A stretch of DNA of 23,895 nucleotides from a virus (IMGVR_UViG_2667527698_000003); one strand, 5' to 3'; counted from the first letter of the stretch, positions 13,885 through 15,384 are shown. Notes: generated by a model from the sequence alone, not told the origin. Made by a program: numbers and translations.

Positions 13885-13993
13885 GCGCTGCGTTACCGCA
13901 TACCAATAACGCTTCACTCGAGGCGTTTTTCGTTATGCAATAAAACAGAAGGAGCATCCTATGTGAAGTGGTCAACAAAAACTGGCCACCGAG

Positions 13994-14890
13994 TTAGAGT
14001 TTTTTCCAGTATCGATTTTCCGATTCGTTTGGTGGTAACCCACCATTATATTCGTGCGGTCTTAGTGCGCTGTAATATCCAACGATATAGTCCGTTATTG
14101 CGTGAGCTGCATCGCTGAAGCTTACATAGCCCGTCGCCGGCACCCATTCGTTCTTCAGACTCCTGAAGAAGCGCTCCATTGGGCTGTTATCCCAGCAGTT
14201 TCCACGCCGACTCATACTCTGCCTGATCCGGTATCTCCACAGTAACTGCCGGAACTGCCTGCTCGTATAATGACTGCCTTGATCGCTGTGGAACATCACC
14301 CCGACGGGCTTACCACGGGTTTCCCATGCCATTTCCAGTGCTTTCATGGTAAGCCTGCTGTCCGGCGAGAACGACATGGCCCAGCCCACTGGTTTTCTTG
14401 CGAACAGGTCGAGAACAACGGCGAGGTACGCCCAGCGCTTACCTGTCCAGATATAGGTCACATCACCGCACCACACCTGATTTGGCTCGGTCACGGCGAA
14501 CTGCCGTTCAAGGTAGTTAGGGATAGCAACATGTTCATGACCACCACGTTTATACCGGTAAGTCGGCTGCTGACAGCTGACCAGCCCCAGCTCTTTCATG
14601 AGTCTGCCAGCAAGCCAGCGCCCCATCTGGTAGCCTCTCTGGGTTGCCATTGTGGCGATGCTTCTTGCTCCGGCAGAGCCGTGGCTGATGCCATGCAGTT
14701 CAAGTACCTGGCTGCGTAATACAGCCCGTCTGCCGTCTGGCTTTTCAGGACGGTTTTTCCAGTATTTGTAGCTGCTGCGATGGACCCCGAACACATGGCA
14801 GAGAGTGGCCACAGGATAACGCGCCCTGAGTTTCCCGATTATCGAGAACTGTTCAGGGAGTCTGACATCAAGAGCGCGGTAGCCTTTTTT
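13994..14890 (-). CDS. IS transposase OrfB (DDE integrase domain), expressed as OrfAB by -1 frameshift
   Basis: ORF 13994..14812 with DDE-type motifs (CGDVTYI...HSDQGSHY...NSPMERFF); slippery heptamer A AAA AAG at 14884..14890 (minus strand). Confidence 0.8.
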
Positions 14891-15141
14891 AATATTTCAT
14901 TTTCCATTTCAATACGTTGTAGCTTTTTCCTGAGCTCACGGATTTCAATTTGTTCCGGGGTAATGGGGGAGGCTTTTGGTGTTTTTCCCTGCCGCTCATC
15001 ACGTAATTGTTTCACCCATCGCGTCATTGTGGAAAGGCCGACATCCATAGCGCTGGCTGCATCTGCCACGGTGTAATTCTGGTCAACGACCAGTTGAGCG
15101 GATTCGCGTTTAAACTCTGCGCTGAAATTTCTTTTTTTCAT
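14839..15141 (-). CDS. IS transposase OrfA (HTH)
   Basis: [46 protein letters not shown]... (100 aa). Confidence 0.8.
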
Positions 15142-15213
15142 TATGGCACCTGTGTTGTTCTGAGGTGAGCATATCACCTCTGTTCAGGTGGCCAAATTCA
15201 GTAAACCACTTCA

Positions 15214-15384
15214 ATGCAACAGTTCGCTATTGCAGGGGCGGCATCGGTTCGCCCTTTCAACCCGATTTTATCGGTACAGCATTCACGAAAAAACATTTTA
15301 ACCGGAGCAGACTTTAAACAACCAAGAATGAAAAGTTTGCTCGAAAAGCTTTGGGATATTTTGAAACAACAAGGCCGTCCATGA
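15214..15384 (+). CDS. CIII-like small protein (56 aa); start codon is the IS target duplication
   Basis: MQQFAIAG...KSLLEKLWDILKQQGRP resembles lambda CIII (MQYAIAG...SLLER...IDILNQPGVP); its RBS (GGAG) is on the other side of the IS. Confidence 0.5.
   Translation: MQQFAIAGAASVRPFNPILSVQHSRKNILTGADFKQPRMKSLLEKLWDILKQQGRP

Follow-up and report, generated by a model that had tools for sequence, protein, structure and literature searches.

An ISEc52-type element at the start codon of a cIII-like gene in the pL operon of a lambdoid prophage

Insertion sequences (ISs) of the IS3/IS911 type move by copy-out/paste-in transposition, and the genomes of Shigella, the genus from which the IS911 prototype comes (Shigella dysenteriae), are rich in ISs, whose proliferation in Shigella prophages is well known. 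In lambda, the stability of CII depends on protection by CIII. Lambda CIII inhibits HflB/FtsH, and a single mutation of mRNA structure, cIII67, can abolish the translation of cIII (PMC3053222). The organisation of IS911, including the -1 frameshifting to OrfAB, has been described (PMC1636345); its outward -35 element lies in the right terminal inverted repeat (IRR), and hybrid promoters can arise from ISs of this family (PMC9330008). Here, an element of this kind and the cIII-like gene at whose start codon it lies are analysed in a stretch of viral DNA of 23,895 nucleotides (IMGVR_UViG_2667527698_000003; this whole stretch is referred to as the window throughout), which covers the early region and the lysis genes of a mosaic lambdoid prophage and the beginning of its packaging genes.

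It is very probable that an intact ISEc52 in the pL operon of this prophage has duplicated the ATG start of the cIII-type gene, so that translation of this gene is down while the distal genes are read through. The features of the insertion and of its target are listed below, with the target-site duplication abbreviated as TSD, the ribosome-binding site as RBS and open reading frames as ORFs.

13964..15213, minus strand: complete IS3-family element (ISEc52, a relative of IS911), exactly 1250 bp, with the left terminal inverted repeat (IRL) at its right end by cIII and IRR at its left end
13961..13963, plus strand: left TSD copy, ATG; native RBS kept, TGA of the IS tip directly after it (start-stop); a single ATG in the empty site
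15214..15216, plus strand: right TSD copy, ATG; start codon of the cIII-like ORF, with IS sequence lacking a Shine-Dalgarno (SD) sequence now 5' of it
13964..13999, no strand: IRR; holds TTGACC pointing outward to ea10, and the orfB stop codon
15178..15213, no strand: IRL; abuts the cIII ATG; 25/36 positions match IRR
14839..15141, minus strand: orfA, HTH transposase component of 100 aa (Pfam HTH_Tnp_1, 6.1e-14)
13994..14890, minus strand: orfB frame with the DDE/rve catalytic domain (Pfam rve, 1e-31; NCBIfam transpos_IS3, 3.8e-90)
13950..13954, plus strand: native cIII SD, AGGAG; now 1253 bp away from the cIII ORF; the same AAGGAGCA motif precedes lambda cIII
15214..15384, plus strand: cIII-like ORF of 56 aa, coding sequence intact (phrog_550 'CIII', 1e-22)

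An earlier note on this DNA had described a 1250-bp IS with a 3-bp direct repeat, ATG, spanning 13961-15216. The span equals the IS plus both ATG copies, and the element has exactly this length, matched inverted repeats and isogenic empty sites with one ATG. Read directly in the window, the left junction is ...AGGAGCATCCT ATG followed by the IS start TGAAGTGGTCAAC, and the right junction is the IS end GTAAACCACTTCA followed by ATG CAACAG...; in longer readings of the window sequence they are ...AACAGAAGGAGCATCCT-ATG-TGAAGTGGTCAACAAAAACTGGCCACC... and ...GGTGGCCAAATTCAGTAAACCACTTCA-ATG-CAACAGTTCGC..., respectively. The terminal inverted repeats are imperfect (arms 13964-13990 and 15187-15213, 27 nt, matching at 21/27 positions or 78%, the 25/36 given above applying to the longer span), and the IS tips, TGAAGTGG and CCACTTCA, are of the TG...CA type of the IS3 family, whose other characters, an orfA/orfB pair, an A AAA AAG signal and a 3-bp target duplication, are likewise present. 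In the ORF scan, orfB is read as 14812-13994, in the -1 phase, as the partly overlapping successor of orfA; a -1 shift at the slippery heptamer A AAA AAG (A6G) at 14884-14890 on the minus strand would give an open OrfAB of 382 aa, as reconstructed from the sequence. If the IS ends were joined via 3 bp, TTGACC of IRR and TTTACT of IRL would stand 17 nt apart, as candidate parts of the junction promoter of a circular intermediate. Searched with Rfam at gathering thresholds, the window gave only three tRNAs, with no match within or near the IS.

The strongest evidence for the insertion comes from assemblies in which this prophage occupies the same chromosomal site but lacks the IS. There are two such isogenic empty sites, JAQRXI010000029.1 and CP012140.1, the latter being S. 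flexneri 4c strain 1205 (PMC5429569), and both are 100% identical to the window at 10344-13963 and 15214-23895 (12.3 kb), with the IS and one ATG as the sole difference, which shows a genuine, simple and recent insertion. The two flank alignments overlap by precisely the 3-bp ATG, and the repeat is therefore a true target-site duplication and not a 1-in-64 coincidence. Deletion of the element in silico, a check that had been proposed with the original description, restores the uninterrupted gene: removal of the IS and one ATG leaves 1148 bp that align to phage PDP110P2 in a single ungapped alignment with 20 mismatches (98.3% identity), and the junction region also matches phage HK542. The uninterrupted junction reads GGAGCATCCTATGCAACAG, and at least 120 IMG/VR contigs contain the 24-mer of the empty site, GGAGCATCCTATGCAACAGTTCGC.

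The occupied junction, by comparison, was found in one IMG/VR contig, IMGVR_UViG_2700989167_000002, which is 100% identical to window positions 2839-14423 and ends 460 bp inside the IS. In 5426 complete E. coli genomes, a 400-bp query across the junction did not find it occupied and matched the IS alone; some of these matches extended 9-16 bp into the flank, and the best of them proved on inspection to be an unrelated site by a DUF4752 gene with a chance GAAGGAG..C similarity. The junction 23-mer had no match in the GTDB species-representative genomes or in the JGI metagenomes, and the right-junction 25-mer had none in IMG/VR. The insertion is confined to two contigs, one from an NCBI assembly and one from an IMG/VR entry, which may stem from the same isolate. 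Judged from these comparisons, it is clean, simple, evolutionarily very recent and strain-specific.

The element had been called IS911-like. This is correct insofar as it is an intact IS3-family element of the IS911 type, but imprecise, as it is 100% identical to copies annotated as ISEc52 and only 94-95% identical to IS911. Over all 1250 bp the IS is 100% identical to a chromosomal copy of E. coli EH09-18-41 and 99.8% identical to many others, and these copies, on chromosomes and plasmids, are annotated as 'IS3-like element ISEc52 family transposase' (NCBI PGAP); they have the same orfA/orfB layout, and the location alone differs. The E. coli copies annotated as IS911 are about 94% identical to it, and the annotated IS911 of Shigella phage Sf6 is 94.9% identical (63 mismatches and 1 gap). 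By the ISfinder convention, isoforms share about 95% nucleotide identity or more. On sequence identity, ISEc52 would be the better name, with IS911-like as a fair but imprecise one.

The insertion of Sf6, like the present one, is located among the early genes of a lambdoid or P22-like phage. The two elements have in common the TGAAGTGG...CCACTTCA tips, a 36-bp inverted repeat, a 100-aa OrfA, the A6G -1 frameshift and a 3-bp target duplication. Comparison of the ends with the Sf6 copy, the earlier note having suggested one with the IS911 reference ends, confirmed the same tips and the 36-bp repeat, but IRL positions 9-11 differ (TTT in the window versus CAC in Sf6). The target duplication is GTT in Sf6 and ATG here, the element measures 1250 bp here versus 1249 bp aligned in Sf6, and, whereas the IS911 of Sf6 interrupts a coding sequence (ninG), the IS of the window parts an RBS from an intact ORF. 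A 99.8%-identical copy lies near the antirepressor gene of Salmonella phage SEN22, so that the same element occurs in a temperate enterobacterial phage of another host genus and at another site. Phage HK022, a lambdoid phage 97% identical over the shared early genes, carries an annotated IS903, of another IS family and at another site, which indicates that IS insertions are commonplace in this phage group; with IS911 in ninG of Sf6 and the window's IS in SEN22, they are common in lambdoid and P22-like phages. Another ISEc52 copy was seen in E. coli AB66 (NZ_OZ547461.1, stretch positions 2234-4036), in a lambda-like prophage remnant at ybhC, where it stands between a DUF4752 gene and a 5'-truncated ninG, an arrangement that looks as if the entire early region had been lost in a deletion associated with the IS.

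The defect that can be predicted firmly concerns translation. As had been claimed, the upstream ATG retains the native RBS, with AGGAG at 13950..13954. The upstream stub reads RBS-ATG-TGA, the TGA being supplied by the first IS bases, so ribosomes that initiate there terminate at once. The intact cIII ORF is now preceded by AAACCACTTCA, which has no SD; the energy of the SD:anti-SD duplex is -8.0 kcal/mol for the native 20-nt leader versus +0.7 for the 20 nt now before the cIII ATG (AAATTCAGTAAACCACTTCA). A fusion protein read in frame from the IS into cIII is ruled out by the TAA at 15202-15204, which closes the frame just 5' of the ATG. A 51-codon ORF that starts from GTG at 13963, overlapping the ATG, and runs into the antisense strand of the IS (13961-14118, plus strand) could be translated and is probably meaningless. 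Given the loss of the SD and the fragile translation of cIII in lambda, a strong reduction of CIII is expected, and translation of the gene would be strongly reduced or abolished. The lambda alleles of the cIII67 type offer a parallel, since they keep the cIII coding capacity and lose translation initiation, the expected phenotype being reduced CII stability and lysogenisation (PMC3053222). The difference is that cIII67 is a point mutation altering mRNA folding, whereas here 1253 bp lie between SD and ORF and the protein is a divergent CIII (28%). On the sequence, the loss of the SD for cIII may also extend to the ORF that overlaps the cIII stop codon, which would probably lose its translational coupling to cIII.

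The identification of the interrupted ORF as cIII, also claimed earlier, is accepted here in the sense of a divergent, positional homologue. HK542 annotates the identical 56-aa coding sequence as CIII, starting from the same ATG. Lambda CIII matches the same family, phrog_550, at 1.4e-31, and the HK022-type CIII of mEpX2 matches it at 7e-13. The 80 nt upstream align to the ea10-cIII intergenic region of lambda, with the terminator hairpin AACGCTTCACTCGAGGCGTT-TTTT, the AAGGAGCA SD and the ATGCAA start in common, and the gene occupies the place of lambda cIII in the pL operon, directly after ea10.

Over common segments, the prophage is about 97% identical to HK022, HK542, mEpX2 and phiv205-1. 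In plus-strand order, its pL region runs through the repressor gene (11421-12071), a terminator, the pL-like promoter, nutL, an N-type gene, a Nun-like gene, ea10, the IS and the 56-aa cIII-like ORF, and beyond it two small ORFs, erf (PF04404), an SSB-like gene and abc2; the IS is oriented antisense to pL transcription. The features of the operon, together with cII, are as follows.

12161..12189, plus strand: pL-like promoter (TTGACC, 17-nt spacer, TAAATT); consensus match only, after the repressor-gene terminator, position as in lambda
12236..12275, plus strand: nutL-like site; boxA GCTCTTTAACA at 12236-12246 and boxB-like hairpin TCTCAAC-CTAACC-GTTGAGA at 12256-12275
12386..12691, plus strand: N-type antiterminator gene with a phage-21-like arginine-rich motif (phrog_271, 8.7e-31)
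13516..13884, plus strand: ea10 homologue (Pfam DUF2528, 1.1e-46); 2/122 residues differ from lambda Ea10; directly upstream, as in lambda
13908..13935, plus strand: intrinsic-terminator-like hairpin and T-run in the ea10-cIII gap; same sequence in lambda
15381..15539, plus strand: 52-aa ORF (phrog_2123, 8.5e-41, HK022p38-like); its ATG overlaps the cIII stop (ATGA); weak SD, -3.0 kcal/mol
15460..15630, plus strand: 56-aa ORF, homologue of Sf6 gene 29, in the Arf position (phrog_1723, 8e-36); own strong SD, -8.8 kcal/mol
15641..16246, plus strand: erf recombinase gene (Pfam ERF, 2.5e-44)
16653..16946, plus strand: abc2 anti-RecBCD gene (phrog_656, 1.4e-54; Pfam Anti-RecBCD_p2)
10743..11039, minus strand: cII homologue (Pfam Phage_CII, 2.7e-33)

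The presence of erf and abc (as abc2) downstream of the insertion, stated in the earlier note, is confirmed by the Pfam ERF and phrog_656 matches. The description of the next ORF as kil-like did not stand: the 52-aa ORF at 15381-15539 belongs to phrog_2123 and has no Pfam match at E<=10, no Kil-family match was obtained among the window ORFs scanned against PHROGs or Pfam, and the annotated Kil of mEpX2 (MRNEIAINHQ...) is a gene separate from the mEpX2 homologue of the 52-aa ORF (gp35). This ORF is probably translationally coupled to cIII. The 52-aa ORF and the arf-like 56-aa ORF (15381-15630, plus strand) share 80 nt, which they read in different frames, and mEpX2 has an annotated counterpart of each; the PHROG label 'recombinase' on phrog_2123 and phrog_1723 is seemingly a name carried over from neighbours.

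The fate of the distal genes depends on the polymerase that arrives at the IS. N-modified polymerase ignores Rho-dependent and intrinsic terminators, as well as polar insertions, over many kb. The sequence of the prophage points to such a system of its own, with an arginine-rich N-type protein (Pfam N_peptide at 0.0045, below the cut-off) and a boxA plus boxB hairpin between pL and N, where the boxA assignment is one that we take from the resemblance to rrn and phage boxA. In the operon without the IS, four terminator-like hairpins separate N from cIII. With its own N gene and nutL, and with these hairpins already before cIII, transcription that reaches cIII should, by lambda biology, already be termination-resistant. 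The earlier statement that the insertion separates cIII and the later genes from pL and the RBS, and should be polar unless an outward promoter substitutes, holds in that cIII is cut off from its RBS, but its second half overlooks N, nutL and the four upstream hairpins. On this analysis, the more likely outcome is that transcription continues across the IS into erf and abc2: polymerase from pL, once modified at nutL by the N protein that the phage itself encodes, would pass the 1.25-kb IS, and the arf-like gene, erf, the ssb-like gene and abc2 would still be expressed after induction. The phage released would be expected to show a cIII-type defect, with CII less stabilised against FtsH and a lower frequency of lysogenisation, whereas maintenance of the prophage would be little affected.

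If the IS were instead fully polar, it would block transcription as well as translation, and cIII, erf, abc2 and the genes on to xis/int would be silent after induction, so that recombination would be crippled and excision possibly too. We consider this unlikely. In its favour, Rho classically acts on RNA such as this essentially untranslated antisense stretch of 1.25 kb (PMC12360218), two weak plus-strand hairpins lie inside the IS, at 14030 and 14643, and the scans gave no outward promoter to restore expression; but the two hairpins have no proper T-tails, the N gene and the boxA/boxB nutL stand 1.7 kb upstream, and, as the four better terminator-like hairpins precede cIII in the uninterrupted phage, only antiterminated polymerase arrives, which in lambda is known to pass terminators and polar insertions. 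Rescue by the IS itself would be the opposite outcome, in which promoter or translation signals of an IS end would free the expression of cIII and the recombination genes from pL and the repressor in the lysogen. Such a gain of function would agree with the capacity of this IS family to create hybrid promoters (PMC9330008) and with the A-rich, predicted-unstructured leader that IRL supplies, yet it is very improbable. Scans of both IS ends with the sigma-70 consensus, at a threshold of 9/12 and relaxed to 8/12, gave no match of at least 9/12 anywhere in the IS and none of at least 8/12 on the plus strand in its last 350 bp, there is no SD before the cIII ATG, and the outward -35 known from IS911-type elements lies in IRR, which here is the far end, directed at ea10 and away from cIII, with no -10 in the flank after its TTGACC. 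The outward promoter at the IS end that had been envisaged earlier finds no counterpart in these scans.

An assembly artefact, with the IS misplaced by the assembler and the real cIII uninterrupted, has hardly any probability left. The window is an entire contig of a draft assembly (AZOP01000052.1, GCA_000565685.1), in which repeats are error-prone, and the contig of a second assembly stops 460 bp into the IS; however, the IS is complete with both inverted repeats, the perfect 3-bp duplication concerns bases that are single in the empty site, which a misjoin would not create, and the identical left junction is carried by the differently broken contig IMGVR_UViG_2700989167_000002. It is also conceivable that the insertion is a selected regulatory change and not neutral decay. 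The uncoupling of cIII from its RBS might shift a Shigella prophage toward lysis on infection, or relieve FtsH inhibition on induction; in another version, a cryptic signal at the IRL end might give repressor-independent expression of cIII and the recombination genes in the lysogen. This is highly doubtful: the insertion is present in two entries only, which may stem from one isolate, and the scans gave no promoter motif.

The reading preferred here, a translational loss of cIII with read-through of the distal genes, has to be held against several observations. The ORF of the window has 28% pairwise identity with lambda CIII (E=0.025) and does not match Pfam PF02061 Lambda_CIII even at E<=10, whereas lambda CIII matches at 1.5e-30 in the same search; owing to these two results, an FtsH-inhibitor function of the 56-aa protein is putative. 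Some translation of cIII might persist through SD-independent initiation on the A-rich, predicted-unstructured leader from the IS end. That N-modified polymerase passes the IS is deduced from what is known of lambda, and a search of the literature found no direct open-access statement of N suppressing IS polarity, the sources being general reviews on Rho and antitermination alone.

Every component of the locus is already known, ISEc52 and IS911 being well characterised, and we regard the insertion as an ordinary, strain-specific one that probably silences one small lysogeny gene. What is mildly notable is the geometry alone, in which a 3-bp duplication coincides with a start codon and yields an intact gene without RBS and an RBS-ATG-TGA stub. 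The importance of the locus hardly goes beyond the annotation of the strain. It makes a textbook-clean case for the IS3 family, with an exact 3-bp duplication and an isogenic empty site 100% identical over 12 kb. It illustrates how an IS may silence a gene with no change to the coding sequence, and it fits the proliferation of ISs in Shigella prophages. An annotation of the prophage should mark cIII as probably untranslated and name the IS ISEc52 instead of IS911. If the phage is still inducible, the prophage of the window and the IS-free prophage of S. flexneri 1205 would form a natural cIII knock-down pair.

Some further observations concern other parts of the prophage. Within the pL operon, the phage-21-type N gene stands directly before a gene for a Nun-like termination factor (12386-13032 for both, plus strand; phrog_5632, 4.8e-71; ends ...NPNKKWS), so that an antiterminator and an exclusion factor of the HK022-Nun type are neighbours in one operon. 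At about 13262-13333 on the plus strand, the source annotation gives a 23-aa product with a Pfam Ral match, which may be a truncated restriction-alleviation gene, as lambda ral has 201 nt, about 66 aa. The prophage is integrated in a Shigella/E. coli chromosome at thrW, tRNA-Thr(cgt), beside proA and proB, and the right end of the window, 23895, lies about 52 bp into an IS1 copy beside proB, as judged from the S. flexneri 1205 sequence; AZOP01000052.1 breaks at this IS1, whereas its assembly runs through the 1250-bp ISEc52. Between a Q-like antiterminator gene (5044-5562) and a holin gene (4259-4582), the prophage carries two tRNA genes of its own, tRNA-Thr(tgt) and tRNA-Asn(gtt), at 4825-4980 on the minus strand.

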